From the NCBI GenBank assembly GCA_026395055.1, contig JAPLZK010000003.1, forward strand, positions 35,855-99,854: a stretch of 64,000 nucleotides of DNA, in the 5' to 3' direction. Positions 10,498 through 49,489 of the stretch are shown here, in pieces. The first letter of the stretch is position 1. Every line of letters starts with the position of its first letter. Source of the DNA: Candidatus Uhrbacteria bacterium. Lineage in GTDB: Bacteria; Patescibacteriota; Patescibacteriia; UBA9934; GWF2-40-263. A model generated the notes under the pieces. It ran no database searches, had not been told where the DNA came from, and was given only the letters and a program-made list of their open reading frames with translations. Made by a program: the position numbers and the translations under genes.

Positions 10498-11307
10498 TTA
10501 AGGTTGTTCCAGAACGGTTTGGATGAACTCCTCGCGATGCGCTTTTTTCCAAGATCGTTTCACACGTGTCCGTTTTTTTGGACCAGAGGTGATATCGATG
10601 ATGTTGAGCACTTCACAGATTTTGTTCGGCACGTTTTGACGTGTTGTGTAGACCGTGCATCCAGCGAGAACCATCTGTTGCTGGTGCAGATGTTTGAGAG
10701 CGATCGCGATGATGGGTTTGTGAAACCCGCGTCGTATGCGTTCGATGAACGAAATTGCCTGAAGCGTTTTTCCGTCTTCGAATGGTGCGACGGCGATTGT
10801 GTCGAATCTGGGTTTTTCCGCCATGATTTTCTCTGCATGCAAGATGCTTGGAGCGTGCATGACGTAAAACGATTCACCCAATTCCGTTTTCCATTGGTTC
10901 AACAAGGATTCATCATTGCTTACAATCAACACGCGGTATTGGTTGGGCGATGAATTTCCGTTGAATACTTCAAAGAGTTTCTTTGGGACGTTATAGCGTG
11001 TGGTGTACGCGCTGCAGCCTGCGAGAAGCATTTGTTGCTGCTGCTCGTGTTTCGCCGCAATCGCGATGATGGGTTTGTGGTACGTGCGGCGAAGTTTCTG
11101 GATGAACGCAATGGCATGGAATGTGTTTCCGTCTTCGAATGGTTCGATGACAATGGCGGCGAACGCAGGAGTTTCTGCAATGAGTTCCTCTGCATCCGGA
11201 ATGCTGTGGACGCTTGTGATGTGGAACTTCTCTTTGAGTTCCGTGATCCATTTGCTGAGCAAGGAATCGTCTTCATTCACAATCAAGATACGGCGTAGGC
11301 GTGGCAT
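10498..11307 (-). CDS. Tandem pseudo-receiver (two REC-like domains lacking the phospho-acceptor Asp)
   Basis: Two about 130-aa repeats ('ILIVNEDDSLL…AAIVIEPFEDG…KPIIAIAAKH' and 'VLIVSNDESLL…TIAVAPFEDG…KPIIAIALKH'). Start chosen at MPRLRR. The DNA-level internal duplication is also visible. Confidence 0.6.
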   Translation of the reverse strand: MPRLRRILIVNEDDSLLSKWITELKEKFHITSVHSIPDAEELIAETPAFAAIVIEPFEDGNTFHAIAFIQKLRRTYHKPIIAIAAKHEQQQQMLLAGCSAYTTRYNVPKKLFEVFNGNSSPNQYRVLIVSNDESLLNQWKTELGESFYVMHAPSILHAEKIMAEKPRFDTIAVAPFEDGKTLQAISFIERIRRGFHKPIIAIALKHLHQQQMVLAGCTVYTTRQNVPNKICEVLNIIDITSGPKKRTRVKRSWKKAHREEFIQTVLEQP

Positions 11308-11375
11308 GACATTCTCCAAGGAAATGCGAGAAAACAATACCAGATTTTGGCTGTTTGTCAAGATGAAAAACGCGC

Positions 11376-35154: not shown

Positions 35155-35469
35155 TTAAAGCAGAGACATCGCCTTCTGAAATTCTTCCTCTGTTGCGAGC
35201 GGGCCTTCTAAACGACCAAATGGATGTGATTGCCAGTACGGCAAGGTATTCATGTTCTTTCTTGTTAAGCGTTCTGCAAGATCCTGATCTCCATGAGTAA
35301 CTTCTGAAAGAAAAAATTGTACTCCACCTTCAAAAATTTCTTCTCCAGGTTTGATGGCCCCTTCATGTGAATCGAACACACACACAAATCCTTCTGGGGT
35401 TTCAAATGCAATGTCGTTTGTATGAGCGCCTTCAAGCGGCATGCCACAGGTCATACAGGATTTCATCAT
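35155..35469 (-). CDS. Hypothetical Cys-containing small protein (possible zinc ribbon 'CMTCGMP')
   Basis: 104-aa ORF. Confidence 0.3.
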   Translation of the reverse strand: MMKSCMTCGMPLEGAHTNDIAFETPEGFVCVFDSHEGAIKPGEEIFEGGVQFFLSEVTHGDQDLAERLTRKNMNTLPYWQSHPFGRLEGPLATEEEFQKAMSLL

Positions 35470-35474
35470 ACGTG

Positions 35475-35888
35475 TTATTTCCAGATACTAAGGATGATTC
35501 CCATTGCACCGAGTTGAAGAAGTGTGCTGCCGCATTCGAATAACCAAAGTTTTATATTTCGTTTCATCCAGATCACTTCATTCGAAGAAGAAGTCACGAT
35601 AAATCCAATCCACATCCATGCAGCAACAATCAAACCTTTGTACCAAGCAATCTCTCCCATGGCTTGTGAAGAGAAAGCCATCCAGAGAACTCCGGCTAAG
35701 ACAAATGCCGCGACAAGGTTCGCGATAAAGTTCCAGGTCATTTGAGGGATCATGTCGGATAATTTTTCTTTTCCTGTTGGGTGTACGTTTGCTAATTTCA
35801 TCCACGTTTTTCCAAAGAGGGGACCGTGCATTAAAAATCCAATGACAAACATGGTGGCAGCTGCGACGAAGATGGCGTAGAGATTCAT
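35475..35888 (-). CDS. DUF1761-like membrane protein
   Basis: Four TM helices and a 'HGPLFGKTWMKL' N-terminus. Confidence 0.35.
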   Translation of the reverse strand: MNLYAIFVAAATMFVIGFLMHGPLFGKTWMKLANVHPTGKEKLSDMIPQMTWNFIANLVAAFVLAGVLWMAFSSQAMGEIAWYKGLIVAAWMWIGFIVTSSSNEVIWMKRNIKLWLFECGSTLLQLGAMGIILSIWK

Positions 35889-35897
35889 AACGTGGGA

Positions 35898-36263
35898 TTA
35901 AAAGCTAAATAAGAGATATGAAGAGCGTTTTGATTTACCAAGGAGATCATGCATCAAGGATGCAAGAAGAGACCAGTAAAGAGCGAAGCCGAATCCGATG
36001 AAGGGAGGTGGTGGGTCATAGTCCGGTGCCTGTCTCAAATATTTGATCATGGGCAACAGTGGTCCGATCAAAATTATTTTAATCGGCAAAATGATTATGG
36101 ATACCGTATTTTTCCAAGCGACGGGTGATCCCAAACCTAGAAATGATTCTCCGTGCGCGGGAAAGCCCCTGACTTCTGATCCTAAAATCGAGTTCGTGAT
36201 GAACTGAAAAGTGAATGCGGAAATGAGAAAGAGAATGATGAATTTCTTTCTTGAAATATTCAT
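35898..36263 (-). CDS. Small membrane protein
   Basis: 121 aa with TM helices. Confidence 0.3.
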   Translation of the reverse strand: MNISRKKFIILFLISAFTFQFITNSILGSEVRGFPAHGESFLGLGSPVAWKNTVSIIILPIKIILIGPLLPMIKYLRQAPDYDPPPPFIGFGFALYWSLLASLMHDLLGKSKRSSYLLFSF

Positions 36264-36411
36264 ATCTATCCAACGTTAGGATGTGACTTGTGGGGTAAGT
36301 ATACCAGTTTCCATCCTCGTTTGGGTATGATAATAATTTTGAACAAACCATTGGTTTTTTTGTACGGCTCCGATGCGGCTTCTCGAAACGCTTAATGTAT
36401 TAGCAAATAAA

Positions 36412-37008
36412 TTAAATCATTTCCATTCTATAATCCACATCTGTCATTTTAACGTAATGAAATTTGTCTCCGTACGTTTCCATAACGGAATCATTCTCTT
36501 TTGCGTGCAATGGATAATGTGGCAACACGATATAATCAACGAGACCAAAACACGTTGGGTCAGATAAAACGAAACCGGCAGGTAATTCAACAGAGTCTTC
36601 TTCGACAAACGGTTCTGCGCTTGGACCCGCAAGAAGAGATCCGGCACTTGAACCGATATACATTTTCCCTTGATGTAAAAGTGAACGAATAATGTTATGC
36701 AATCCGGAACGATGAGATTGTTCTGTGAGATATGTCGTATTTCCACCTGCGACAAAAATAATGTCGGCCGAGGCTAAATCTTTTTTCAACTCTTCTTCAT
36801 TTCTATTTTCCAAATCAACATCTGTAACCTCGTACCCAAGTCCAACCAAAGCTTCTCGATCTTTTTCAACCCACGGATGTTCTGTATATGGATTTGAAGC
36901 GGTAGGGATAAACGCAACAAGGGCGTGTTTCGGCAATAGCGCATTGTCAAAAAGTTTCTTTGCGATTGTATTAAAGCTCGAGGTGAGAATGAGATTTGGG
37001 ATTGACAT
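36412..37008 (-). CDS. pepE: Peptidase S51 family (dipeptidase E/cyanophycinase-like)
   Basis: 'IIFVAGGNTTYL', nucleophile elbow 'YIGSSAGS', His in 'VLPHY'. Confidence 0.65.
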   Translation of the reverse strand: MSIPNLILTSSFNTIAKKLFDNALLPKHALVAFIPTASNPYTEHPWVEKDREALVGLGYEVTDVDLENRNEEELKKDLASADIIFVAGGNTTYLTEQSHRSGLHNIIRSLLHQGKMYIGSSAGSLLAGPSAEPFVEEDSVELPAGFVLSDPTCFGLVDYIVLPHYPLHAKENDSVMETYGDKFHYVKMTDVDYRMEMI

Positions 37009-37055
37009 AGGATTCTAGTATAGCAAAAAAACGCAGGGGTGTTTCATTGTGTTTA

Positions 37056-37233
37056 GAGGGTGGGGGATTGCCACGCTCTCGAAAGCCAATGGCCGATCAG
37101 GGCTTTCTCCGCTCGGCAAATCCCCACCCTCGCAAATTGTCGCGATGGTCGATAGACGACAATTTGAACAAACCTTCGGTTTGCGAGCCATACAAAAAAC
37201 TCTAGTCGAAACTAGAGTTTTTTGTATGGCTCG
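37056..37233. repeat. Two large palindromes upstream of pepE at the island junction: a 16-bp-stem nested cruciform (37056–37131) and a perfect 23-bp-stem hairpin (37184–37233)
   Basis: GAGGGTGGGGGATTGCC…GGCAAATCCCCACCCTC encloses GAAAGCC…GGCTTTC. CGAGCCATACAAAAAACTCTAGT-cgaa-ACTAGAGTTTTTTGTATGGCTCG has its right arm overlapping the first 7 nt of the left direct repeat. Confidence 0.6.
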
Positions 37234-37294
37234 GAGTCCGGGAACAAGTGACAACCGTAATTGAAAGGAGTTTATCGACCGCTAATGATGCCCT
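37227..37294. repeat. Left 68-bp direct repeat (putative attL)
   Basis: 68/68 identity with 42289–42356. Confidence 0.8.
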
Positions 37295-37417
37295 GCCCAT
37301 CGTTGCGCTTTCCCGGGAAGGCGAAGAAGAGTGCGGGAGATTGCACCACGCGCGAATCCTGAGTGGGTATCTCTGGCTCAGTGGTCACAAAAAGACCTCT
37401 GATGGGGGATATCTGAC

Positions 37418-37639
37418 ATGAAGCTTTACGTGCCGTTCGCTACCTTTGCGACAACCGCATTTGTCTCGTTTCTTTTTTCGTCGTACATCCTTATCTACTA
37501 CGTTGTCCCTGCGCATGATTTGGAAGTAATCATGAAGGCTTCAACCGCCAGTGTCGTATTCGCACTCTTCGGCGTTGCCGTCGTCGGAATGACGAAATGG
37601 ACCCGTATTCCGGTACTTCCCCGAATGCTGAAACTCTAG
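37418..37639 (+). CDS. Small membrane protein (island cargo)
   Basis: 73 aa with two TM helices. Confidence 0.3.
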   Translation: MKLYVPFATFATTAFVSFLFSSYILIYYVVPAHDLEVIMKASTASVVFALFGVAVVGMTKWTRIPVLPRMLKL

Positions 37640-37861
37640 AAAGAGCGCATTCTTCAGGCTCCACCCAATCTGGCAAGATTGGGTGTTTTTGTTGCATCTG
37701 AGCTTTCGGTCTAGAGGCTACACAACAAATTTGCCGAAGCTACTGTTCCGCAAAGAATCCCCACGTATTCACTCAGTCGAACTTGGCGATAGGGGTCCTT
37801 GTGGCCGTGCCCTTGGAGGTGGTGTTCTATCCGTCGGAGCCCCGGCCGGCCCGGTCGGCGA

Positions 37862-38539
37862 ATGACATATTGTATCGCTATTCAGCGTTCCTCGGAACTT
37901 CTCGTCGTCAAGTTCCATCGATACTCGAAAAGCAGCAAACGTGCCAAACACGAGTGCTACTACGGCCCCCAAGAGGGCCACGTAGACGGCACATCCCCAC
38001 TTGCGAAGCAGTTGACCCTTGAACCGGAATCGGACTGTCTCATCGGCATCGCAACCGCGCGGCTTGACGCGGTTGACCAGCGGAACCCGAACCAGACCTT
38101 GACTCTCGCCACGCCGTACTTGCTGCAGGAAACGGCGATGGCGCATCAACGCGATTTGCCCTTTATCATCTTCAAGGCCGAAGGCGTCCACCTTCAGGGC
38201 GTAACCGCCCGGAACATCTACATCCCGATCCAGAAATCGGTCGGACCATCCGGGGGACTGCTTCTGGCGAGTGGCACTGACCACGCTGTCGCGCGGGCTG
38301 CGCTCGACAACCTGCTGCAGGAAGCTCTGGCGCGCAAGAAGCGGCGCGAAAGCAGTGATTTCTGGAACAAGATGAAGAACCTCGGCCTTGGGATTGCCGC
38401 AGTTGGGGCTGGAATCACGGCACTGGATGTTTACGGTCGGCCAGATTGCTTTGGCGGCTTCTACTACAACGACTCCGAATGCAAAGCCTGCGGGTACCGA
38501 TTGAAATGTAAAGGGAAAAAGGCGGAAGACGGCAGGTAG
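37862..38539 (+). CDS. Hypothetical protein (island cargo), Cys-rich C-terminus 'CFGGFYYNDSECKACGYRLKCKGK'
   Basis: The + frame has GC3 of about 75% over 38040–38540. Overlaps an antisense ORF (37769..38743). Start uncertain (37799 or 37862). Confidence 0.35.
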   Translation: MTYCIAIQRSSELLVVKFHRYSKSSKRAKHECYYGPQEGHVDGTSPLAKQLTLEPESDCLIGIATARLDAVDQRNPNQTLTLATPYLLQETAMAHQRDLPFIIFKAEGVHLQGVTARNIYIPIQKSVGPSGGLLLASGTDHAVARAALDNLLQEALARKKRRESSDFWNKMKNLGLGIAAVGAGITALDVYGRPDCFGGFYYNDSECKACGYRLKCKGKKAEDGR

Positions 38540-38784
38540 CAACACTGCATGAATGGCGCCGGGAGGGGCTGCATACGCAATCGCCGGCGGGAAAGCTATG
38601 GCGTTGGCTCCACGATATGCGAACATTTGCCCGGGGAAATACTGAACGCTTCGGTGTGTACCGGGACTTGACAAGCGATCGGTGTTGATCCAAATCGCAG
38701 TTGCGAGTTGCCAACGGCGGTCGCTGTGGAAAATCTGCTCCACTTCTTTGAAGGATTGCTGTAGAATGTCAAGCGGGGCACTTA

Positions 38785-40257
38785 ATGGAATTCAATGAAA
38801 TTCAAGTTGTTCCCCTGACAACCCAAGGGCAATGGAGCCAACTCAGGACTGCATGTCCGATGTTGACTTCATGGGGGCTGAAATTCCTTCAGCAAGGACT
38901 TGCTGACCATGTGAGAACTGCGGTAGTTGAGCGGCGTTATGTGTGCAAAGACCATCGGAATCTTCATAGCAATTTCTACTCAAAGAAATTCCAGATGCGG
39001 CAAGAGCCGTGCTCTCGCATCCACTTCTTCACCGAGAAGTTAAGTGACGAGTTTGACGTCTATGCTCCAACGGAGGAATTCTCGGCCGGATACGTTGGCT
39101 ACTCGGTCATTCGACCTGTGACGGAACGGTGCATCGGCAGAACGGTTCTTGACCCTTGGCTAATCGGCCGCGGCCCGAGTTCCGGTCACTTCATGCTCAG
39201 AACCGGTTTCAGGTCACATATCAACGGCACGCGCTTCAATGTCAGCGGATTTCCGATGATGTCGCAGGATTCCGAAGCAACGGTTTGTGCGCACTCAGCT
39301 CTTTGGAGCGTTTGTCGGTATCTATCGGAAAGGTACCCAGAGTATCCTGAGATCTATCCCTATGATCTCATTGATATGACGCAGGACGTCTCGCAAGGTC
39401 GACGTGTTCCTTATCGCGGTATGACCTACCGGGACTACGCAACAATCCTAAGTCAATTTGGCTGTCACCCGGTGGTTGTAAAGACTCGGGCAAGCACATT
39501 GGATACTACTTTGATCGAAGAAAAGTACCAGGATCTTTGCACATACGTAGAGTCAGGATTTCCGATTCTAGCAAGTCATCCCCGTCACGTTGTGGTAGCG
39601 ATTGGCCATACTCTCGATAAGTCCGCGACCCCGAAGCCTGATGGCGAGGGTCTCGTGAGCAGTTCAGAGTTTCTAAAGCAGTTCGTAGTAGTTGACGATA
39701 ACGCATTCCCGTATCGGCTGCTCGGTCGAGCCGCCGACCCGATGAACTACAGCAAGAAGTACTCGATCGAAACCATTCATTCGGCGGTTTGCCCGCTACC
39801 AGAGTTGGTGTTCCTTCCCGCAGAGGGTGCACGAAGGGCTGCGAAAAGCATACTGAGGCAGCTCCGAACTGAGTTCGGAGCAGCTCTCCTAGACGGCGAA
39901 GATGAGCCGTTGGTGACGCGACTGTTCTTGACAAACGCCTCTGCACTTCAGCGACGTCGCCGAGAGAAGGCGGGCATTGGTCCCACGTTCGACGAGGCAG
40001 TCTTGATTACGACGCGCATCCAACTTCCGCACTTTGTTTGGGTGATGGAAGTTGGCCCCATGTCGCTGTACAAACAAGGCTACTGCACCGCGGAGATTGT
40101 CCTTGATTCGACAGCGAACGAGCGTGAGGAATGCTTGATCTACGCTAGAGTCGGCTCAAATCTCGTGTGGTCGACGGACGGAGAATCGCTCTCAAAACCA
40201 ATTGTTAACGGCCACAGCCGAATTCATCAATACACCCACAACCTAGGAGAACACTAG
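38785..40257 (+). CDS. Hypothetical 490-aa protein with putative papain-fold (peptidase C39-like) Cys…His signature
   Basis: 'EATVCAHSALWSVCRYL' (Cys at a helix N-terminus) and about 95 aa later 'RHVVVAIGHTLD' (His on a β-strand), as in C39/BtrH-like peptidases. Assignment by motif only. Confidence 0.4.
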   Translation: MEFNEIQVVPLTTQGQWSQLRTACPMLTSWGLKFLQQGLADHVRTAVVERRYVCKDHRNLHSNFYSKKFQMRQEPCSRIHFFTEKLSDEFDVYAPTEEFSAGYVGYSVIRPVTERCIGRTVLDPWLIGRGPSSGHFMLRTGFRSHINGTRFNVSGFPMMSQDSEATVCAHSALWSVCRYLSERYPEYPEIYPYDLIDMTQDVSQGRRVPYRGMTYRDYATILSQFGCHPVVVKTRASTLDTTLIEEKYQDLCTYVESGFPILASHPRHVVVAIGHTLDKSATPKPDGEGLVSSSEFLKQFVVVDDNAFPYRLLGRAADPMNYSKKYSIETIHSAVCPLPELVFLPAEGARRAAKSILRQLRTEFGAALLDGEDEPLVTRLFLTNASALQRRRREKAGIGPTFDEAVLITTRIQLPHFVWVMEVGPMSLYKQGYCTAEIVLDSTANEREECLIYARVGSNLVWSTDGESLSKPIVNGHSRIHQYTHNLGEH

Positions 40258-40476
40258 ATGGAAAAAAAGCCTGGCGTCGCGACTAATCCACCTGTGCGCC
40301 GCTCGCTGCCGAATCTCAAGGAGTTCGTCGCCGACGCGAAGAGTACCCCCATTCTTGCGAATGCAATTGCAGAACTGCGAGCGCTCGATGAAGAGGAAGG
40401 TACGACCCCCGTTCAACGCTACAACACTGACTGGGCGATTCTCGCTAATGAAATTGTTGGCCAAGAGACGGTATAA
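40258..40476 (+). CDS. Small hypothetical protein co-transcribed with the 490-aa gene; followed by terminator 40496–40533
   Basis: ATG immediately after the upstream stop. 72 aa. Hairpin aaccgac…gtcggtt + T7 downstream. Confidence 0.35.
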   Translation: MEKKPGVATNPPVRRSLPNLKEFVADAKSTPILANAIAELRALDEEEGTTPVQRYNTDWAILANEIVGQETV

Positions 40477-40568
40477 CTGAATCGAAGCCACACAACCGGA
40501 CTCAACCGACTCGTGGAGAGGTCGGTTTTTTTGCTGGCGTCGATCGAAAAGTCAATAGTCACGCGCCG

Positions 40569-41120
40569 TCAGGCAACCACTCGGCAATTCGTGGCATTCA
40601 CTTTCTCGATCTCCGCCGCCAAAGTCGTATCCGCCAACCCGGCATAATGCTTCGCCGTTGTCGACACGTCCGCATGCCCGAGCATCCGCGACACGTAGAA
40701 GAGCGGCACGCCGCACTCAAGCCACCGCGCCCCACATGACCGTCGCAAACCATGAAAATCAATCTGGCGTACTTTCGCCTTCTTGCACGCGGCGACAGTG
40801 TCGCGGCGCAGGTTTCCTTTTCCGAACGTCCCTTGCGAGAACATGTAGCCGTCCGTGCCCCAGAGGCTCTTGGCCTCATCAAGAAGCTCGATCGCTCGGT
40901 CGTCGAGCGGGATTGCCCGTGCGCGAGATGACTTCGAAACCGGCACCGAGATCGCCGGACGACCAACCGTGCCGTGAATCGGGCAAGCACATCGTCGTTG
41001 ACGAGGCCCAAGCACGAGAACTCGCCGGTGGCCATGTCGGTCCAGTGCCAGATTCGTTCCAGGGCCGCGGCGTCGATCCAGACCCGCGGGCCCGTCCTGA
41101 TTTTCATGGAGTTTCTCCAA
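40569..41120 (-). pseudogene. Tyrosine-recombinase (phage-integrase family) C-terminal catalytic fragment
   Basis: 'RAIPLDD…FHGLRRSCGARWLECGVPLFYVSRMLGHADVSTTAKHYAGL' (K…HxxR…Y present). No box I Arg or N-terminal domain. The N-terminal part of the ORF is junk-like. Confidence 0.55.
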
Positions 41121-41285
41121 AATGGAGCAGCCCAGCCCCTGTCGAACTTCGGCAAGGGCTGGGTGCTCAGGTTGTTGTCGTGGTGCGTGACGCGGCGACT
41201 ATTCGTCGTCCTCGTGGTCCGAGCCGGGGCGGCGAGCTATGAGCTCGTCCTGCGTCAACGACTAGCTCGCGGAGAACCTGTTCTG

Positions 41286-42233
41286 ATGTCGGAACAGGCG
41301 GAACAATCATTCTCCGAATTCGCCGCTGAATGGTTTCGGACGTATGTGCAAACCAACAACAAGCCCAGCGAGCAACGCACGAAGATGCTTAATCTGAAGA
41401 ATCATCTTCTCCCGTTCTTCGGACGGCTTCCTTTGAAGAAGATCAGTTCTTCACTCGTCGAACAATACAAAGCGAAGAAACTCAGCGAGAACCTGTCACC
41501 GAAGACGGTGAACAACCATCTCGTTGTTCTCAGCAAGTGCCTTCATACCGCGAAGGATTGGGGACACGTCAACGACTGCCCGACCATCAAACATTTGAAG
41601 ACAGTATCCCAGCGACTTGATTTTCTGAGCCCGATCGAAAGCCAACAGCTCATTGAAAACGCCAGCTACCCGATGTGGCAGGAAATGGTCTTCCTGGCAC
41701 TCCGGACGGGGATGCGACTAGGTGAACTCTTCGGCCTGGAATGGCAAGACATCGATTTTCCCCGTCGACTACTCACGGTGCAACGGTCAATCGTTCAAGG
41801 AATTGTCGGAACGCCGAAGAACGGAAAGACGCGGCACATACCGCTAACAACGGACGTGTGCAGGGCGTTGTTCGAAATGCGCCAACCGGCGGGACTCGTC
41901 TTCGCGCGTCCAGATGGTTCACCTCTATCACATATCATGGCGCAGAATGCGATTCGACAGGTATGCAAACGTGCTGACGTCCGAAGGGTGTCGTGGCACA
42001 TTCTCAGGCACACGTTTGCATCGCAGCTGGCCACTCGTGGCGTTCCACTCACCGCCATCAAGGAGTTGCTTGGTCATTCATCTATCACGATGACCATGCG
42101 ATATGCGCACCTTGCGCCATCCACATTGCGCGATGCCGTTAATGTCCTTGAAAACCAAAAATCGCCCGAAAAGGAATCTCTTGGGCAACCGGTGGGCAAC
42201 GGAACCGCTTCCGTGGCAAATATGCGTGTCTAG
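41286..42233 (+). CDS. Tyrosine recombinase/integrase (phage integrase family)
   Basis: N-terminal SAM-like core-binding region, box I 'LRTGMRLGEL', 'KTRHIPL', box II 'HILRHTFASQLATRGVPLTAIKELLGHSSITMTMRYAHL'. Start chosen at MSEQAEQ; the track ORF 40974 extends upstream over the opposite-strand fragment. Confidence 0.8.
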   Translation: MSEQAEQSFSEFAAEWFRTYVQTNNKPSEQRTKMLNLKNHLLPFFGRLPLKKISSSLVEQYKAKKLSENLSPKTVNNHLVVLSKCLHTAKDWGHVNDCPTIKHLKTVSQRLDFLSPIESQQLIENASYPMWQEMVFLALRTGMRLGELFGLEWQDIDFPRRLLTVQRSIVQGIVGTPKNGKTRHIPLTTDVCRALFEMRQPAGLVFARPDGSPLSHIMAQNAIRQVCKRADVRRVSWHILRHTFASQLATRGVPLTAIKELLGHSSITMTMRYAHLAPSTLRDAVNVLENQKSPEKESLGQPVGNGTASVANMRV

Positions 42234-42288
42234 TTTCTCCAGAATGTGCACATTCACTGCACTTTCTGTCTATTACATGGTCTGATTC

Positions 42289-42356
42289 ATGGCTCGGAGT
42301 CCGGGAACAAGTGACAACCGTAATTGAAAGGAGTTTATCGACCGCTAATGATGCCC
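42289..42356. repeat. Right 68-bp direct repeat (putative attR)
   Basis: 68/68 identity with 37227–37294. Confidence 0.8.
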
Positions 42357-42414
42357 GTTACGATTCTGCTTGAACACGGTACGATGGAGTCACTAATTCA
42401 CTCATGTCATTTTC

Positions 42415-43431
42415 ATGTCAGTCATCATCTATGCTCGTGTCTCAACCGAGGAACAAGCCGAAACTGATTTATCGATTCCAGCACAGATTCGAGCCATGCA
42501 GGCTTATGCAGCAGGCACGCTCAATAAACCAATCGTTCAGGAATTCCAAGATGTGGCATCTGGTCGTTCAATGAAGGGGCGATCTGGTCTCCTTGCTGCA
42601 ATAAAATTTGCGAGTTTGCGTAAGGAAGTCGATACGTTTTTGGTTCATCGGATAGATCGCTTATCACGAGACATCGCCGATTATCATGTGATAAAGGCTA
42701 CGCTTGCAAAACACGGTATTCGTCTTGTTTCCGTCGTTGAACACACGGACAATACACCGGCTGGCGAACTCATGGAGAATATTTTCGCGTCGTTTGCTCA
42801 ATTCACCAGTGCGAAGATTGGATTTGAGGTGAGAAAAAGTTTGGAAGAACGGCTGCGACGTGGTGAGTGGACGGCGCAAGCTCCCGTTGGATATTTGCTC
42901 AAACAAAAGAAGTTGGTTCCAGATCCTGCCCGAGCACGTTTTGTACGCGAGGCGTTTCGGCGTTACGCGACGGAAACAATCAGTGTGTCACAACTTGCTC
43001 GCGAACTCGCTGAAATAGGATTCGTTGGTAAGCACGGAAAACCAATCGCCATCAACCGCATTTATACGATGTTGCACAACCCAATTTACATTGGTCGATT
43101 GAAAACGTCATTCGGTGAATTCCCAGGTAAACACCAACCGCTGATTGACGAAAATGTCTTTGAAATCTGTCAGAAACGGCTCAATCATGGTCGCGGAAAA
43201 GTTGCTCCTCGCCAAGCACAACATTTTCCTCTTGCGGGACAACTAAATTGTCCAACATGTGGAAGGGTCCTCATTGGCGAACACCACATCAAGAAAAGCG
43301 GAAGGGAATATCGGTACTACCGCTGTCATAATACAAAATGTCACTATTCAATTCATGCAGACGAGGTCGAGGCAAATATGACCATCATCGGAGACATACC
43401 ACCAAAGGTTCAATCAGATGATCTGAATTGA
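42415..43431 (+). CDS. Serine recombinase (resolvase N-domain + recombinase domain + C-terminal Zn ribbon)
   Basis: 'IIYARVSTEEQ' (catalytic Ser), 'VHRIDRLSRD', recombinase-domain 'YLLKQKKLVPDP', Zn ribbon 'CPTCGRVL…YYRCHNTKCHY'. Confidence 0.75.
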   Translation: MSVIIYARVSTEEQAETDLSIPAQIRAMQAYAAGTLNKPIVQEFQDVASGRSMKGRSGLLAAIKFASLRKEVDTFLVHRIDRLSRDIADYHVIKATLAKHGIRLVSVVEHTDNTPAGELMENIFASFAQFTSAKIGFEVRKSLEERLRRGEWTAQAPVGYLLKQKKLVPDPARARFVREAFRRYATETISVSQLARELAEIGFVGKHGKPIAINRIYTMLHNPIYIGRLKTSFGEFPGKHQPLIDENVFEICQKRLNHGRGKVAPRQAQHFPLAGQLNCPTCGRVLIGEHHIKKSGREYRYYRCHNTKCHYSIHADEVEANMTIIGDIPPKVQSDDLN

Positions 43432-43505
43432 TACCCCAACAGAATTCTTTCAACGCAAAAACTGCTCTGTTGAGCAGTTGCGGGATCGATATCCAGTTGA
43501 TTGTA

Positions 43506-43580
43506 TGGCTCCGAGGGTGGGGATCGAACCCACGACCATCTCGTTAACAGCGAGCCGCTCTGCCGCTGAGCTACCTCGGA
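43506..43580 (-). tRNA. tRNA-Asn (anticodon GTT) with encoded CCA
   Basis: Reverse complement reads TCCGAGG-TA-GCTC-AGCGGCA-GAGC-G-GCTCG-CTGTTAA-CGAGA-TGGTC-GTGGG-TTCGATC-CCCAC-CCTCGGA-G-CCA. Confidence 0.8.
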
Positions 43581-43825
43581 ATGTGTACTTTTGATTTTAG
43601 AAATTCTTTTCCAAAACCAGACTTAAACTTTTTCTCTTGTTGTCTTGCTTCCAGTCTTGTCTCAACTTCCAGTGTATATAAGATACTCCATGGAAGATAG
43701 GCTTTTGTCGAAGTCACTTGACCAGCATTATGTTCCTTTAATCGACGTTCAAGATGTTCGCTGAAGCCGACATATATTCGACCATCGCGTTCGCTTCTTA
43801 AAGCGTAGACTGTAAACATAACCAT
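43571..43825 (-). CDS. Small GIY-YIG nuclease family protein
   Basis: 'VYALRSERDGRIYVGFSEHLERRLKEHN' is a classic GIY-YIG. The start codon lies inside the upstream tRNA-fragment copy and the last 10 nt overlap the tRNA-Asn 5' end. Confidence 0.7.
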   Translation of the reverse strand: MVMFTVYALRSERDGRIYVGFSEHLERRLKEHNAGQVTSTKAYLPWSILYTLEVETRLEARQQEKKFKSGFGKEFLKSKVHIPR

Positions 43826-43887
43826 CTCGTTAACAGCGACCCGCTCCCTGCCTGCCGGCAGGCAGGTGCCGCTGAGCTACCTCGGAA
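43821..43887 (-). pseudogene. Duplicated 5' portion (nt 1 to about 47) of tRNA-Asn carrying a 20-bp perfect palindrome insertion in the D-loop
   Basis: Matches the tRNA-Asn 5' half except for CCTGCCTGCCGGCAGGCAGG inserted at 43847–43866 and one substitution. Confidence 0.6.
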
Positions 43888-43923
43888 TGTGGAGCGAGGA
43901 GATTATAACATGAGGATCTGAAA

Positions 43924-44403
43924 ATGCAAGATTCCTCATTCCTTACTGTATTGAGTGAATTTGAGGTGGTGTATCGGTTTTTTCGAACTGTGTTGGAACT
44001 GCTATACTGTTCTCATATGCGTGATCCTAAACGATACATAGTTCTTTTTAAAATTGTTGGAACAGTGTTCGTTGTTGTTTTGGCAGTATTTATCCTCTTT
44101 AAACTGATTTCCACGCAAACAGCAAACAAAATCGTCCCTGTTCGTGACATGAATGGTGCGTCCATGAATAATAATGGGCAGAGAACGGTTCCTCCCCCTC
44201 AATCGCCTGGAGATTCAACGTCGCTTCTCATTCAAACTTGCCCAGAGGCTTGGTATGGAGATCAGATGCCAAAAGTGATTGGAGGATCGAGAACACAGAC
44301 AAATGAATACATGATCATGAATGGAAAGCGGGTGGAGATGAATCAAGTGGATGTGGCTTGGGTGCTTACACATTGTCAGGTAAAAAAGCAATCGGTGTTC
44401 TAA
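43924..44403 (+). CDS. Hypothetical membrane-anchored protein
   Basis: One TM ('IVLFKIVGTVFVVVLAVFILF'). Start may be the internal MRDPKRY. Confidence 0.35.
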   Translation: MQDSSFLTVLSEFEVVYRFFRTVLELLYCSHMRDPKRYIVLFKIVGTVFVVVLAVFILFKLISTQTANKIVPVRDMNGASMNNNGQRTVPPPQSPGDSTSLLIQTCPEAWYGDQMPKVIGGSRTQTNEYMIMNGKRVEMNQVDVAWVLTHCQVKKQSVF

Positions 44404-44412
44404 ATACGGCTT

Positions 44413-47400
44413 GTGTTGTTGATTATGTCTCATCGAGATAAAAAAAATGAAAAGGGCGTGTGGTTTTTTGGCGCTGTCGCTTTTTTGTTTTTTCTTCTTC
44501 CTGGTTCGTTGTATGCCAAGTCTTTAACAGGGTTTTCTTTGCGTGCCCTCGAACATCCACTTTCTCAAGAGAAAACAGAAACTGTTTCACAAAATCAAAA
44601 GACAACACCGGTACAAGCGAGTGCGGATTTATTGCCAGTCGTTCAAAATGCGGAGTCATTAAAGACATATGTTGACGGGGAAGTGCTTGTGAAATTCAAA
44701 GACTCTGTGTTGAATTTAAGGGGTGGTCATAACGGTTCTCGATCCTTTGCATTTGCCTCCTCAAGAAACTTGGAGAAAAAAGAAGACGTCCCAAATAATA
44801 ACATCTCTCTATTTTCTTCAAGAAAAAATACAAAAGGACAAAGAGAGACGGTTCAACAAATGATGAATCGATTGCAAAAAGATCCAAGTGTCGAATCTGT
44901 TCAACCAAACTTTTTGTATGAAACAAAATCTATTGCTACAGACGATACATTCAAGAATTTATTGTGGGGTCTCGATAATACGGGGCAGGTTGTTGATTCC
45001 GTAACAGGAATAGCAGATGCAGATGTGGATGCGCCAGAAGCGTGGGCGATCAACGAAGGAACAAACGCGAGTGTGATCGTTGCGATTATCGACACGGGTG
45101 TTGCATATAATCATCCGGATTTGATTGGAAGCATGTGGGACGGAACGAATTGTGTGAGTGATACGAATACGGTGCTTGGAGATTGTAATCACGGTTACGA
45201 TTTTGAAGATTCCGATAAAACCCCTCTTCCAACGTCAAATACACACGGAACACATTTGGCCGGAACCATCGCGGCCATGAAAAATAATGGGAAAGGAATT
45301 ATTGGACTCGCGCCAAATGCAAAAATCATGGCGCTTAAGGTGGATCTTACAACATCGGAAATTATTAAGGCGATCAACTTCGCTAAGTTCAATGGGGCAA
45401 AGGTGATTAACGCAAGTTGGGGTGGTCCAGATTTTGATGCAGCCATGAAAGACGCAATCGATCAGTTTCCTGGATTGTTTGTTGCGGCAGCAGCGAACAG
45501 TGCACAAAACAATGATCTCATTCATAATTATCCTTCTGATTACACTTCCACGAACATTATTTCGGTTGCGGCCACAGACCAACTCGATCATTTAGCTTCG
45601 TTTTCAAACTACGGTGCGGTTTCTATTGATGTTGGAGCACCTGGAGTTAATATTTATAGTACGGTTGCAAACTCAACGGTGCTTGATCAAACATTTGAGG
45701 GGGTTGTGTCACCAAATGTTCCGAGTGGGTGGACGACAGCCGGAGAAGGTTCGGCGAACTGGGGTGTCTTTGGAATTACATCGCCTGATACGTATGGATT
45801 CGGATCAGTTTTGTACGGGGATAAAAACGTTCCGTATCTGAATAATGCAGATTCAACCATTGCACTTCCTGCAGTAGACCTTGGAACAGCTGTTCAGGGA
45901 GCCGTTCTTGATTTTACGTCGAGTTGTGATACGGACTTTGATCCTGGGTTGTCTTCTGACTACATGCAACTTGAAGTAAGTACGGATGGAACAACATGGG
46001 TTCCGGAAGGAGACCTTGGAAAATGGAATGAAGACGATTCAACCGTAAATTACGATGAGGTTGCATTTGATGCCACAAGAACATTCATTCATTTTTCTCA
46101 GCAAATTCCAAGCGCGTTTCTCACCGCAGGATTTACGCTACGATTTCGTTGGCATACAGATGCATCTGGTGTTTCGGATGACGGATGTTCCATCAATAAT
46201 TTACAAATCTTAACATTCTCTGATGGCTCAGATGAACTGTATGGATTCATGGATGGAACTTCCATGGCGACGCCGCATGTTGCCGCTCTCGCCGCTTTGT
46301 TGGGAGGATTTAATCCTGATTTAACTTCCGCACAAATTAAGAGTGCGATTTTATCTTCTGGCGATGCGCTTCCTGCTCTGAGTGGAAAAACGGTTTCGGG
46401 AAAAAGAATCAATGCGGCGCGTGCGCTGCAATCGGTGAACCCGGCAAAAGCAATCACCGCATTTTCTTTTGCAACTCCGTCTGTTGTGGGAGAGATCAAT
46501 GAAACAGATCACACAATCGCTCTGACGGTTCCATTTGGAACGGCTGTTACAGCCCTTGTTCCAACAATTGTGACGACGGGTGCTTCTGTGAGTCCATTGA
46601 GTGGGGTTGCACAAGATTTCACATCTCCTGTCACGTATGCTGTGACCGCAGGGAATGGTTCAATCCAAAATTATGTTGTGACCGTCACAATTGAGGTGGA
46701 TCCGAATATTGTTTTGGTTGCTGCAGACAAAGCGGCGCTTCTTGAGAGTGCGATCATTGGAACAAACGAGAATGTTTCTCATATCACGACAGCGCTCACA
46801 AATCCACTTCCGTCGACAGGTCTCGTAAATGGTTCGTTTATTACCTGGGCATCGAATCACACAAGTACCATCTCGAATGATGGACAAACCATTGTAAGAC
46901 CACCGTTTGCCGATGGAGATGTAACCGTTACATTAACCGCAACGATCACAAAAGGATCCGCATCGGATACGAAGATCTTTACACTTACCGTTTTGAAATT
47001 AGCTGCGAGTCCTATATCGACCGTCACTTCGAGTGCGTACACCGTTACAACAGGAGAAACACATAGTGAAACAATATCGGCCGTTCCGTTTGCAATAACA
47101 AAAACAAATTTCCTTGCTGCACTTACAAAAGGAGAGTCACATGAGGTTTGGGATAGTACATTCGTCACAGATCCTGTTGTGACGGGGAATGTTCTTGTTG
47201 TCACAGCGCAAGATGGTGTGACACAGGACACATATACGATTACAGCTGCATTAAATCCCGCAAAAGCCATTGCCGCATTTAACTTTGCCAGTTTTTCTGT
47301 CACAGGATCCATCAACGAGACCTCGCATACGATAACAGCAACGGTTCCAGCTGGGACCACTGTCACAGCACTTGTTCCTGCGATTGTTATTACGGGCGCA

Positions 47401-48228
47401 TCCATCAGTCCTCTCAATGACGTTGCTCAAGATTTTACGAATCCTGTCACGTATACCGTGACGGCTGCCGATGCTTCCATACAGACGTATGTGGTAACTG
47501 TTCGTGTTACAGCATCGAGTGGAGGCGGAGGCAGTGGAGGAGGCGGCGGAGGTGGGGGTGGTGGATCGATTGCTCCTCCACCAACTCCGGTGGTAACAAC
47601 GGTCCCTGCAAAATCAACCACATTAACGAGTCCTGTCTCGATTGTCTCTGCGTCAACAGATGCGGATACACTTGCGGGAATCAAAAAAGATTCGGAAGGA
47701 CATCGCGATGCGCCGTCAACGGCCGAGGTTGGATCTTCGCCATTCAGTCAGGTCGTTGAGCCGATTTCAAACGTGCAAACAGGTTGGCTTGTCCGTGCAA
47801 AGGGAAGTAATAGTGTGTATTACGTGGGAGCAGACGGGAAGCGTCATGTTTTTTGGAACACGCAATCGTATTTTTCTTGGTCAGACTCTTGGAATGATGT
47901 TGTGTGGATTACAGACGCAACACTCCCAACCCTCGCGTTCGGTGCGCCTATTTTGCCAAAGCAAGGAGTCGTTCTTGTAAAAATCGCGAGTGATCCAAAT
48001 GTGTACAAGGTGGAAAGTGATTTGGTGACGGGTGCACCGTATTTGAGAAAAATTACTTCCGAAGCAATTGCTATCCAAATGTATGGCGCACATTGGGCTG
48101 ATTATGTGATCGACCTTGAGCCAACATTGTTTACGCATTATGCACACGGAAAAGATGTTGTGACGGCGGAAGTGGTTGATACAAGCATTATGAAAACGCG
48201 GGCGCAAATCGCCGCATTGAGTCTGTAA
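44413..48228 (+). CDS. Giant secreted subtilisin-like serine protease (peptidase S8) with tandem repeat modules and a poly-Gly linker
   Basis: Signal peptide. Catalytic triad contexts 'VAIIDTGVAYNHPDL' (Asp), 'HGTHLAGTIAA' (His), 'GTSMATPHVAALAALL' (Ser). Two about 85-aa repeats ('NPAKAI[TA]AF.FA..SV.G.INET.HTI…YVVTV') at about 46438–46695 and 47260–47520. 'SSGGGGSGGGGGGGGGGS'. Confidence 0.8.
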   Translation: MLLIMSHRDKKNEKGVWFFGAVAFLFFLLPGSLYAKSLTGFSLRALEHPLSQEKTETVSQNQKTTPVQASADLLPVVQNAESLKTYVDGEVLVKFKDSVLNLRGGHNGSRSFAFASSRNLEKKEDVPNNNISLFSSRKNTKGQRETVQQMMNRLQKDPSVESVQPNFLYETKSIATDDTFKNLLWGLDNTGQVVDSVTGIADADVDAPEAWAINEGTNASVIVAIIDTGVAYNHPDLIGSMWDGTNCVSDTNTVLGDCNHGYDFEDSDKTPLPTSNTHGTHLAGTIAAMKNNGKGIIGLAPNAKIMALKVDLTTSEIIKAINFAKFNGAKVINASWGGPDFDAAMKDAIDQFPGLFVAAAANSAQNNDLIHNYPSDYTSTNIISVAATDQLDHLASFSNYGAVSIDVGAPGVNIYSTVANSTVLDQTFEGVVSPNVPSGWTTAGEGSANWGVFGITSPDTYGFGSVLYGDKNVPYLNNADSTIALPAVDLGTAVQGAVLDFTSSCDTDFDPGLSSDYMQLEVSTDGTTWVPEGDLGKWNEDDSTVNYDEVAFDATRTFIHFSQQIPSAFLTAGFTLRFRWHTDASGVSDDGCSINNLQILTFSDGSDELYGFMDGTSMATPHVAALAALLGGFNPDLTSAQIKSAILSSGDALPALSGKTVSGKRINAARALQSVNPAKAITAFSFATPSVVGEINETDHTIALTVPFGTAVTALVPTIVTTGASVSPLSGVAQDFTSPVTYAVTAGNGSIQNYVVTVTIEVDPNIVLVAADKAALLESAIIGTNENVSHITTALTNPLPSTGLVNGSFITWASNHTSTISNDGQTIVRPPFADGDVTVTLTATITKGSASDTKIFTLTVLKLAASPISTVTSSAYTVTTGETHSETISAVPFAITKTNFLAALTKGESHEVWDSTFVTDPVVTGNVLVVTAQDGVTQDTYTITAALNPAKAIAAFNFASFSVTGSINETSHTITATVPAGTTVTALVPAIVITGASISPLNDVAQDFTNPVTYTVTAADASIQTYVVTVRVTASSGGGGSGGGGGGGGGGSIAPPPTPVVTTVPAKSTTLTSPVSIVSASTDADTLAGIKKDSEGHRDAPSTAEVGSSPFSQVVEPISNVQTGWLVRAKGSNSVYYVGADGKRHVFWNTQSYFSWSDSWNDVVWITDATLPTLAFGAPILPKQGVVLVKIASDPNVYKVESDLVTGAPYLRKITSEAIAIQMYGAHWADYVIDLEPTLFTHYAHGKDVVTAEVVDTSIMKTRAQIAALSL

Positions 48229-48245
48229 CAACAGGATCGCGTCTT

Positions 48246-48995
48246 TTGTTTATGAACGTCATCACGAAAAGAATAGTAAGTGGCGGCACGATTCAATATA
48301 CAGGTTCATTGGATAAGAAAAATATCCTGCTGATTTTAGGTCGCAATAATTTTTTGAAAGATGAAGAGCTTATTCGCTCATTGGTAGACGCACTCACGTC
48401 CGAGAAGATGACGATTGTGTGTTATGAGCATGTGGGTGTCACAACGGCAAAGCGAATCAATCTTGCGTGTGATCAGTTCCTGTCGCGACACAAATGGATT
48501 CCCATTGCTTCGAGAAATTTTTTGAAGATGTGTCTCTTGGTAAAATATCCAAAAGTTTGGCATTATTTTTATCTTGCAAAGATGGATAGCCCAAAGCTTG
48601 TTGTATTTCAGGTAAAGCAATTGCGGAAGTATCTGTCTACAGTTGATGCATCGAAAAATGTTTTTCTTCTTTCTCGATCCGCAAGTGGTCGGGCAGCCGC
48701 ACTTGTAGCAGAGGAACCGGTTGTAAAGAAAATTATTTGTCTTGGCTACCCGTTCAAGCATCTAACCGCATCCGATGAGCAAGAGCGTGTGCGTCCACTT
48801 GCAACAATATCGAAACCTTACTTGATTGTTCAAGGAACGCAGGATGTTTATGGTGGCCGAGAAGTGCTTGATCGATATACGTTCTCGCCAAACGTCTCAT
48901 TCTCGTTTGTTGATGCGGATCATGATTTTCTTGTTTCGAAGGTGGAGTGGGAACGGGTTATGATGGAAGTGAGGGATTTCATCGCGATCTCGTAA
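48246..48995 (+). CDS. Putative alpha/beta-hydrolase-fold protein
   Basis: Secondary-structure-like pattern with 'VFLLSRSASGRAA' nucleophile-elbow-like segment and a 'DADHDF' C-terminus. Weak. Confidence 0.3.
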   Translation: MFMNVITKRIVSGGTIQYTGSLDKKNILLILGRNNFLKDEELIRSLVDALTSEKMTIVCYEHVGVTTAKRINLACDQFLSRHKWIPIASRNFLKMCLLVKYPKVWHYFYLAKMDSPKLVVFQVKQLRKYLSTVDASKNVFLLSRSASGRAAALVAEEPVVKKIICLGYPFKHLTASDEQERVRPLATISKPYLIVQGTQDVYGGREVLDRYTFSPNVSFSFVDADHDFLVSKVEWERVMMEVRDFIAIS

Positions 48996-49010
48996 AAGAA
49001 AAACACTCGA

Positions 49011-49442
49011 TTAACGAGTGTTTTTCTTTTTTGCAGCCTTCTTTCCGCACGGCGGACATAAGCAGCCTTTTGGTTTGATAAATGCATTGAAGTATTCTTT
49101 GCCGTAATCGTAAAGAATTTCTTCTCCTGGTTTGATGTTTTTTGTGGAATAAAGAAAGACGCGATTTCCCGTAATACGCACCTCTGTATTTCCTCGACAG
49201 CTGTGATTTGCGTAGCGTGCGATGTTTAATCGTGTGGTTCCGACGATCGTGTTTCCGTTTTCGAGTTCGAATAAGTATCGCCCCTGAATTTTTTCTGCTT
49301 CTTCATCTGTGACGAGCTTGCCCCAGTATTCGATAATGAATTTGTTCTTTGGAATTTCATTGACAGCAAAAAGCCCGTGCCCAGTTGGGCTTTTCTTTAC
49401 GCGTGTCAGATATTTTTGTGGTCGAGGGAAAGGATATGCCAT
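49011..49442 (-). CDS. SET-domain protein (putative protein-lysine methyltransferase)
   Basis: 'GHGLFA', 'IIEYWG', 'ARYANHSCRGN', 'EILYDYG' and a C-terminal Cys cluster (post-SET). Bidirectional terminator 48995–49032. Confidence 0.65.
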   Translation of the reverse strand: MAYPFPRPQKYLTRVKKSPTGHGLFAVNEIPKNKFIIEYWGKLVTDEEAEKIQGRYLFELENGNTIVGTTRLNIARYANHSCRGNTEVRITGNRVFLYSTKNIKPGEEILYDYGKEYFNAFIKPKGCLCPPCGKKAAKKKNTR

Positions 49443-49489
49443 AAAGAGATCTAAATAGTAGCATAGTTCGTTGTTTCGTCACATCTCGA

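Follow-up and report, generated by a model that had tools for sequence, protein, structure and literature searches.

A 5.1-kb block of foreign DNA near a tRNA-Asn gene in a Candidatus Uhrbacteria genome, a possible crippled derivative of a tRNA-targeting integrative family

The repeats and the block between them

The 64-kb stretch of DNA analysed here (the window; part of the 367,614-bp contig JAPLZK010000003.1 of assembly GCA_026395055.1) comes from Candidatus Uhrbacteria, a bacterium of the candidate phyla radiation (CPR; Patescibacteria). It contains a 5.1-kb block bounded by perfect 68-bp direct repeats, with a tyrosine integrase gene (int) at its right end, and the nature and origin of this block are the subject of this report. 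From left to right, the locus consists of host genes, a relic motif (motif a, 36365), pepE, which has host-like composition, and the start of the left repeat (motif b). The 5.1-kb foreign block follows and ends in int, beyond which lie the start of the right repeat (motif c), a serine recombinase gene and tRNA-Asn. The main features are listed below, with a strand where one applies.

36338-36374: older relic resembling an attachment site (att), TTTGAACAAACCATTGGTTTTTTTGTA followed by CGGCTCCGA, which forms an imperfect direct repeat with 37163-37236
37184-37233: hairpin with a perfect 23-bp stem (A6, stem, CGAA, stem, T6), its right arm entering the start of the left repeat
37226-37293: left 68-bp repeat, attL-like; bases 2-11 resemble the tRNA-Asn 3' end
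40569-41032, minus strand: decayed tyrosine recombinase pseudogene, catalytic domain only
41220-42233, plus strand: tyrosine integrase gene, 5'-truncated; reading frame open upstream to 40974, core-binding and catalytic domains intact
42183-42200, plus strand: GGGCAAC-N4-GGGCAAC inside the 3' end of int, a candidate cis-acting (arm-type) site
42289-42356: right 68-bp repeat, attR-like, 55 nt past the int stop, where relatives have a tRNA gene 3' end or a fragment of one
42415-43431, plus strand: large serine recombinase gene (338 aa; host-like GC content at third codon positions, GC3, of 0.41)
43506-43580, minus strand: intact tRNA-Asn(GTT), convergent with both recombinase genes and presumed to be the primary attachment site of the hotspot

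The two repeats are identical at 68 of 68 positions and are spaced 5,063 bp apart, a unit made up of one repeat copy and 4,995 bp. A repeat search of the 64-kb window found no further copy at up to three mismatches (chance expectation 0), and the two 68-mers account for all repeated 31-mers. GC content is 54.7% (0.547) between the repeats versus 45.6% (0.456) in the rest of the window, and GC3 is 0.55-0.69 in the genes of the element versus 0.34-0.41 in pepE, an S8 protease gene and the serine recombinase gene. The DNA between the 68-bp repeats is foreign. An earlier note, made from the letters of this DNA, had described foreign DNA between perfect direct repeats with a recombinase gene at one end, and this description stands, although its left repeat began one base too high. 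It had also placed a recombinase reading frame ending at 42233 close to the right repeat, with the serine recombinase gene and tRNA-Asn beyond it, all of which were recovered. Its abrupt GC shift at both repeats holds in part, as the rise is real but the change at the left edge of the element is more gradual.

The 68-mer as a whole is not a recognisable RNA. ARAGORN returned nothing for it, Rfam returned nothing at the gathering threshold or at E≤10, and its fold is less stable than those of shuffled sequences (z +1.5), with no structure. Together these results rule out the whole 68-mer as a tRNA, a tmRNA or another known RNA. The possibility that it is a decayed copy of the entire tRNA-Asn was also considered, but an end-to-end (semi-global) alignment that beats 97% of shuffles (p ~0.03) was judged too weak. 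A 22-mer taken from the 68-mer has no match in JGI metagenome contigs or IMG/VR, the whole 68-mer has none in loci L001-L009 from relatives, and blastn with the whole element found no match in PLSDB plasmids or INPHARED phages. Each copy carries on the plus strand a promoter-like motif, TTGAAA-17-AATGAT (37261-37289 and 42324-42352), which in the left copy points into the element and in the right copy towards the serine recombinase gene. Such matches to the consensus number five in the region, which is not above shuffles.

The integrase family and its link to tRNA-Asn

The integrase of the block retains its catalytic machinery. The database annotation gives a protein of 375 aa starting at 41106, homologues being 360-390 aa long, and in this numbering the catalytic set R200, K238, H298, R301, H324, and Y333 is present in columns that are invariant with the window protein included. 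The Pfam Phage_integrase model matches with an E-value of 2e-33. Like lambda Int and the Tn916-Tn1549 integrases, the window copy has core-binding and catalytic domains with the R, K, H-x-x-R, H, and Y residues; unlike them, it has lost three N-terminal strands that are present in its relatives.

This loss can be followed in several ways. When aligned with ten relatives of 48-72% identity, the window integrase agrees only from 'AGAASYELVLRQRLARGE' on, and its N-terminus is unrelated where all ten have 'MSxRKxxNSWWVDFRFxRxRxRxRSPENSK'. In tblastn comparisons with seven relatives, homology always begins at their residue 30-34, which corresponds to position 41220 of the window, and the segment 'SWWVDFRF.R.R.R.RSPENSK' occurs in none of the three frames. 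The AlphaFold model of a 72% identical relative (pLDDT ~90 in this part) places three beta-strands at residues 3-24, followed by a helix at residues 30-45; fold matches include Tn1549 Int (E 1e-13) and full-length lambda Int. These strands are what we take to be the arm-type DNA-binding domain of lambda- and Tn916-type integrases, arm binding being putative; no arm-binding model in Pfam matches the segment. The window integrase lacks the three N-terminal beta-strands of an arm-binding-type domain and hence is not intact, contrary to the earlier note.

A second tyrosine recombinase gene lies on the opposite strand. As the note had proposed, it is a fragment of an integrase catalytic domain. It extends from 40569 to about 41030 and is 28-33% identical to the family of the other integrase; its frame shifts near 40990, and both the box I arginine and the N-terminal half are gone. 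The two genes therefore stand head to head, each without its 5' part, as is characteristic of a deletion that spanned the DNA separating them. Further components are missing from the element. In complete relatives an HTH_17 excisionase gene lies directly upstream of int (as also in a relative with 77% identity) and a primase gene is present, while no reading frame of the element matches a Pfam excisionase (HTH_17) or primase model. A tblastn search with the upstream regions of seven relatives found nothing in the element except the Int helix. One marginal 26-aa match between a reading frame upstream of int in relative L028 and the 72-aa gene of the element (E 4e-4, against the 5-kb target only) was disregarded as a sign of an excisionase. 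With the N-terminal domain of Int, the excisionase, and the replication module all absent, the element is not an intact mobile unit.

The architecture of the family was examined in a scan of relatives, which, at one genome per species, gave 80 loci with integrases 36-58% identical. They come from Patescibacteria (including three other Uhrbacteria), Myxococcota, Gammaproteobacteria, Planctomycetota and others, and archaeal metagenome-assembled genomes. ARAGORN placed a tRNA on the opposite strand 13-360 nt past the integrase match in 29 of the 80 loci, within 152 nt in 28 of these, and many isoacceptors are represented. A whole element is visible in six loci (L015, L025, L028, L029, L035, and L048). 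Their direct repeats are 23-46 nt long, begin at most 3 nt from the tRNA 3' end, and recur 7.3-10.4 kb away beyond int. The family targets tRNA 3' ends, with int convergent to the tRNA.

The most instructive comparison is with L028, from Candidatus Uhrbacteria RIFCSPLOWO2_01_FULL_47_17 (MGEI01000005.1), which belongs to the same candidate phylum and has an integrase of the same family at 46% identity. Its int is at the right end, convergent to a tRNA-Gly ~70 nt away, and direct repeats flank an element of ~8.5 kb carrying TerS, DUF5659, an 822-aa Prim-Pol, HTH_17, and Int. This gene content makes it a PICI-like small integrative element. Unlike the window element, L028 has a full-length Int and a repeat of 23 nt that is identical to the tRNA-Gly 3' end. 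None of the accessory genes of L028 is found in the window element, which has other cargo.

The start of the 68-bp repeat links the window element to this architecture. The right repeat starts 55 nt past the int stop as A followed by TGGCTCGGAG. These bases 2-11 of the 68-mer match the tRNA-Asn 3' end (TGGCTCCGAG) at 9 of 10 positions. The flank is shared as well, since the left repeat is preceded by TTTTTTGTA and the real tRNA-Asn 3' end by GATTGTA, both containing TTGTA. A T-run followed by GTA occurs at the left copy, the real tRNA-Asn and the relic at 36365, where a third motif (36355-36374) reads TTTTTTTGTA followed by CGGCTCCGA. In total, the locus holds four motifs that resemble the 3' end of tRNA-Asn. 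The note had seen no likeness to a tRNA 3' end in the repeat, a view that is right for the 68-mer as a whole and wrong for its first bases and their flank.

Close relatives have tRNA-Asn sequence at the same place. In L007, a 630-kb contig with a 72% identical Int, TGGCTCCGAGGGTGGGGATCGAACC lies 10 nt past the int stop and is identical to the final 25 nt of tRNA-Asn in the window; beyond it the sequences diverge. In L009 (70% identical Int), TGGCTCC follows a terminator hairpin 73 nt past the int stop. Both loci have tRNA fragments only after int, with no intact tRNA gene within ~150 nt. In the window, the tRNA nearest to the int stop is tRNA-Asn at 1,272 nt, with the serine recombinase gene in between, and 1.15 kb separate it from the 68-mer. 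On sequence evidence, the start of the repeat appears to occupy the position of the family's att core and to resemble the core of the neighbouring tRNA-Asn, and the best reading is that the subfamily represented here uses tRNA-Asn. The mismatch between this core and the resident tRNA-Asn indicates that the element was not inserted in the present tRNA gene.

The GGGCAAC-N4-GGGCAAC motif inside the 3' end of int may be a further component of the system. The identical 18 bases are found in L007 but in another reading frame, which suggests that the DNA and not the protein is conserved. The motif is a candidate arm-type site of Int, or alternatively may represent relics of int 3' ends. GGGCAAC heptamers occur only three times in the 64-kb window. 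In L007 the motif lies at 11050-11067, 11327-11344, 16794-16811, and other positions; downstream of int it recurs at four more places in 57-nt repeats, as two tandem pairs and two single heptamers. These imperfect 57-nt repeats form an array (L007 11295-17540) downstream of int and the tRNA-Asn fragment, separating blocks with tRNA-Val, an FRG-domain gene, and large unknown genes, and an OLD-like nuclease gene follows the last repeat. The array looks like serial accretion or a cassette-like organisation in another genome.

Origin of the block

The preferred explanation, to which a probability of roughly 0.55 is given, is that the 5.1-kb block is a recently acquired, crippled derivative of the tRNA-targeting integrative family, left by serial integration and decay at a tRNA-Asn hotspot. 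Complete members of this family are elements of 7-10 kb with TerS, a Prim-Pol replicase, an HTH_17 excisionase, and a lambda/Tn916-type integrase. The region at 36.3-43.6 kb may be an accretion zone on the 3' side of tRNA-Asn. The 68-bp repeats would be attL and attR, each composed of an att core of ~10 nt from the tRNA-Asn 3' end and an adjoining arm of ~58 nt. An incoming circle could have shared this 68-bp stretch with a resident att relic, and recombination between the two would have produced the duplication. The resident relic may have been the left end of the remnant bearing the serine recombinase gene or an earlier copy of the same element. A deletion between the head-to-head integrase genes, before or after entry, would have removed the excisionase, the replication genes, and the first ~30 codons of int. 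We infer the order of these events, the catalyst of insertion, and the role of the 58 nt as a shared arm.

The perfect repeats and the unameliorated GC content suggest that insertion was recent. As Int is truncated and the excisionase (Xis) is missing, this copy would be either stranded or always reliant on a relative acting in trans. The element is probably no longer self-mobile, and the routes that would remain are RecA-dependent loss between the repeats or mobilisation by a related Int and Xis in trans. The repeated traffic of mobile elements that the note had proposed fits the locus, where two incomplete tyrosine recombinase genes and a probably truncated serine recombinase gene occur together with the motifs that resemble the tRNA-Asn 3' end.

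Several findings weigh against this explanation. The repeat is longer, at 68 bp, than the 23-46 nt of relatives, and its sequence past the first ~10 bases is not that of a tRNA. Against the resident tRNA-Asn, the core has a mismatch at position 7, and from base 11 onwards the two sequences diverge. Searches of L001-L009, JGI contigs, and IMG/VR found no second copy of the 58-nt arm. A truncated Int without Xis is a poor candidate as the catalyst of a recent insertion. The repeats flanking pepE extend outward from their tRNA-like motif, which a simple model of this kind does not predict. Finally, the evidence for the integrated state is that of the contig itself, and contigs assembled at k=31 do not distinguish this state from an empty site or a circle.

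These latter contigs come from the Logan assemblies of two sequencing runs. The matching contigs are 100% identical to the window. In SRR20698643 they represent 35273-37255 of the left flank, 42327-49735 of the right flank, and 39107-40610 of the element, and in SRR20698644 they represent 42327-47458 of the right flank. Each flank contig breaks off exactly 30 nt (k-1) inside the repeat, indicating that the 68-mer has two contexts in those reads. The element is present in the same sample as its flanks, and the k=31 contigs are compatible with integrated, empty-site, and circle states. The sole Logan contig of the element is 1.5 kb long versus 2-7.4 kb for the flank contigs. The 490-aa cargo protein and both versions of the integrase are not on record in exact-protein look-ups.

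Well behind the preferred explanation, the best surviving alternative is a Campbell-type insertion, in which a 5,063-bp circle carrying the same 68 bp (acquired, for example, by an earlier imprecise excision) entered by a RecA-dependent single crossover without the integrase. The precise, sharp-edged duplication seen here is what a single crossover within a shared segment produces. An integrase without its N-terminal domain, the missing excisionase, and a repeat exceeding the usual att identity of the family also suit this route, which we consider improbable. RecA-dependent recombination has a short substrate in 68 bp, and homology alone does not predict that the repeat should begin at a tRNA-like core at the family's att distance from the int stop. 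If the shared segment is the att region, this alternative merges with integration of a crippled family member at the tRNA-Asn hotspot.

Slightly less credible is an artefact of the assembly path, whereby an empty chromosomal site and a free circle (or another organism) share the 68-mer and the loop was threaded into the contig. A repeat of 68 bp is shorter than a read but longer than common de Bruijn k values, and the Logan contigs do break there. The short Logan contig of the element, the absence from the records of its two large genes as complete products, and the difference of 9 points in GC content would all be consistent with this. Set against it, reads of at least 100 nt span a 68-bp repeat and modern assemblers make use of them, and flanks and element occur in the same sample at 100% identity. 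Were it true, the 68 bp would still be an attP/attB pair and the biology would be little changed.

The target favoured in the note was instead a unique structured intergenic site in the hairpin region upstream of pepE, unrelated to tRNA and occupied by an intact autonomous element. Both hairpins it described, the 23-bp stem at 37184-37233 and the nested one at 37056-37131, are real; the left repeat overlaps the former, the latter is strong and lies near, and the 68-mer as a whole is not a tRNA. This explanation is nevertheless very unlikely and largely refuted. The integrase is truncated, the accessory genes are absent, and the integrase family is tRNA-directed, its members lying convergent to a tRNA and having repeats that begin where that tRNA ends. 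At the place where the 68-mer starts, the closest relatives for which DNA is available have 3' fragments of tRNA-Asn, and here the first bases of the repeat, together with the sequence on their left, copy the 3' end of tRNA-Asn and its flank. In the reconstructed empty site, the 68-mer would be 58 nt upstream of the serine recombinase gene and not in a pepE-specific structure. The 37184-37233 hairpin itself seems largely to resemble the bidirectional terminator that separates int from tRNA in L009 and L032, extended into the core by complementarity. Least plausible is that the 68-mer belongs to a dispersed repeat family or is a regulatory cassette such as a promoter module, its copies being unrelated to integration. 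A promoter-like motif in each copy does face the downstream gene, but such motifs are no more numerous than in shuffles. The 64-kb window has only two copies, searches of L001-L009, JGI metagenome contigs, and IMG/VR gave none, and the copies precisely bracket compositionally foreign DNA.

Among known systems, the closest parallel is with the tRNA-linked islands of streamlined genomes, where serial integration, fragmented integrases, and scattered partial tRNAs have been described (bioRxiv 10.1101/2020.12.28.424599). Compared in architecture with the text of that preprint only, the window element is like the tycheposons and PICI-like elements of Hackl et al. in being a tyrosine integrase element beside a tRNA gene of a streamlined genome, with repeats that would be att sites derived from a tRNA 3' end. 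Like tycheposon islands, the locus suggests several integrations at one tRNA with older elements pushed away, and has integrase fragments, partial tRNA motifs, and cargo unrelated to mobility. Unlike tycheposons, it has a CPR host and not Prochlorococcus, the copy lacks replication and excision genes, and the repeat is 68 bp and mostly non-tRNA.

Flanking relics and cargo genes

The serine recombinase gene stops 74 nt short of the 3' end of tRNA-Asn and is probably what remains of another element, located between the 5.1-kb element and the tRNA. Large serine recombinases have a zinc ribbon with an inserted coiled-coil and are usually 450-600 aa long. The window protein has resolvase and recombinase domains and a zinc ribbon and ends just past the latter (covering positions 2-329 of 465 in the XisF model and 9-337 of 542 in the CcrB model); from its length alone, it probably lacks the coiled-coil. 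Although probably truncated, the gene is found in identical copies in the two sequencing runs.

On the other side, imperfect direct repeats of ~37 nt (36338-36374 and 37163-37236) enclose pepE and the region upstream of it, and pepE may itself be an old cassette of this hotspot. The repeats consist of TTTGAACAAACC.T.GGTTT, a T-run, GTA, and YGGCTCSGA. The right one is interrupted by a 35-nt palindromic insert, which makes the 23-bp hairpin. Upstream of pepE, the nested GC-rich hairpin at 37056-37131 has outer arms of 17 nt with 88% complementarity and fold z-scores of -4.1 and -6.0 for the plus and minus strands, respectively; it has no match in Rfam. No relative of the flanking S8 protease exceeds 55% identity or covers more than ~80% of the protein, its highest-scoring non-self match being 48% identical, and it has no relative in JGI contigs.

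Another insertion may have affected the tRNA-Asn gene itself. A GIY-YIG nuclease reading frame of 84 aa lies on the minus strand within 43571-43891, between the intact tRNA-Asn and an upstream partial copy that covers positions -5 to +46, differs by one substitution, and has a palindromic insert of 20 nt in its D-loop. The reading frame starts inside the partial copy and ends inside the real tRNA-Asn. The arrangement resembles a small insertion by which the 5' two-thirds of the tRNA-Asn gene were rebuilt. No group I intron model matches it; tRNA-Asn introns have been reported in Patescibacteria (PMC13011429).

Within the element, the cargo genes lie to the left of the recombinase genes.

37418-37639, plus strand: 73-aa reading frame, two hydrophobic stretches by eye, followed by a terminator-like hairpin (37662-37685)
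37862-38539, plus strand: 225-aa protein with a hydrophobic, Cys-rich C-terminal region (by eye)
38785-40257, plus strand: 490-aa protein with a papain-like central domain, as predicted
40258-40476, plus strand: 72-aa partner gene directly after the stop of the 490-aa gene, followed by a terminator-like hairpin (40504-40527)
Small-partner genes elsewhere: L004 6876-7091; L006 9512-9715; L093 9422-9622

The 73-aa reading frame may be a gene. The 225-aa protein belongs to a rare family, with 41 cluster representatives at E≤1e-3 among 1.84 billion, and has no match in Pfam, PADLOC, or NCBIfam. A 324-aa minus-strand reading frame at 37769-38743 was judged spurious, an artefact of high GC content; its codon-position GC is antisense-like, and the overlapping plus-strand 225-aa frame has homologues. 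Searches of PADLOC-DB 2.0 assigned none of the eight element proteins to a family, and NCBIfam and PHROGs returned nothing for the cargo.

The 490-aa protein is part of a larger family of ~500-aa proteins with 292 members at E≤1e-3, the best non-self match being 60% identical. Named members come from Verrucomicrobiota, Planctomycetota, and Dehalococcoidia, and no Pfam domain is recorded for any member. Viral contigs almost lack the family, with one locus found. Residues Q161, C168, H268, H275, D304, D305, and N306 are invariant across 55 sequences. The structural model is confident (pLDDT 90.5, pTM 0.92), and Foldseek relates its central domain to PCAT1 C39, UfSP, staphopain, and Josephin, the best E-value being 7e-3 and none reaching 1e-3. 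A weak match to Peptidase_C39_2 (17.2 bits versus a cutoff of 24) points the same way, while no sequence match in the PDB and no structural match for the N- and C-terminal domains was found. In the model, the central domain resembles a papain-like (C39/UfSP/staphopain/Josephin-like) fold, with weak matches. As in clan CA peptidases such as these four, the invariant Gln, Cys, His, and Asp/Asn follow the expected order on the predicted central fold. Unlike C39 systems, there is no ABC transporter, the N- and C-terminal domains are large and unmatched, and the partner is a protein of ~70 aa rather than a known substrate.

The pairing with this small partner is consistent. In all four other contexts examined, the 490-aa gene is followed immediately by a gene for 66-72 aa. 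The pair lies beside a serine recombinase and a transposase gene (L004/L005), inside an island with MmeI-type restriction-modification, PLD-SNF2, and McrB-like genes (L006), and ~4 kb from an IS1-type gene (L093/L094). Three of the four contexts outside the window therefore adjoin mobile-element or defence genes. The C-terminus of the partner carries an invariant W..LA..VG.E and ends after 1-3 further variable residues, 2-5 residues past the invariant Gly. The Val-Gly of this motif recalls the mature C-terminus of Ufm1. A distant homologue of the 490-aa protein (24% identity over 84% of the query) is encoded on the Mesorhizobium sp. AR07 plasmid NZ_CP080527.1 (L092, 342061-345819). It adjoins genes for a ThiF-family (E1-like) adenylyltransferase and a multiubiquitin-domain protein, which constitute a bacterial ubiquitin-like conjugation cluster.

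The most economical guess is that the pair consists of a peptidase and its substrate. A more specific and doubtful proposal is that the pair forms an undescribed two-component system moved between phyla on small islands, here into a CPR bacterium, in which the peptidase would trim its partner after Val-Gly, as UfSP does on Ufm1. Conservation of the pair in all five contexts, mostly near mobile or defence genes, hints at such a system, as do the island with MmeI-type restriction-modification, McrB-like, and PLD-SNF2 genes and the distant homologue beside ThiF and multiubiquitin genes. If this were true, trimming would release or activate a tag, a toxin or a signal, possibly in phage defence or in stabilisation of the element. 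The discovery potential of the locus lies in this cargo pair, which is widespread, present in several phyla, unannotated, and without a Pfam match above threshold, and which is found on mobile DNA and in at least one defence island.

As a kind of element, the 5.1-kb block is ordinary; its novelty is mainly the CPR host and the uncharacterised cargo pair. For annotation, the lesson is that an intact mobile element cannot be assumed wherever a long perfect repeat lies next to a recombinase gene. A single integrase family and its architecture span Patescibacteria, Myxococcota, Gammaproteobacteria, Planctomycetota, and archaeal metagenome-assembled genomes. In this CPR genome, DNA of clearly foreign composition appears to have entered recently, and the tRNA-Asn hotspot would reflect the same island-building process as in other streamlined genomes.

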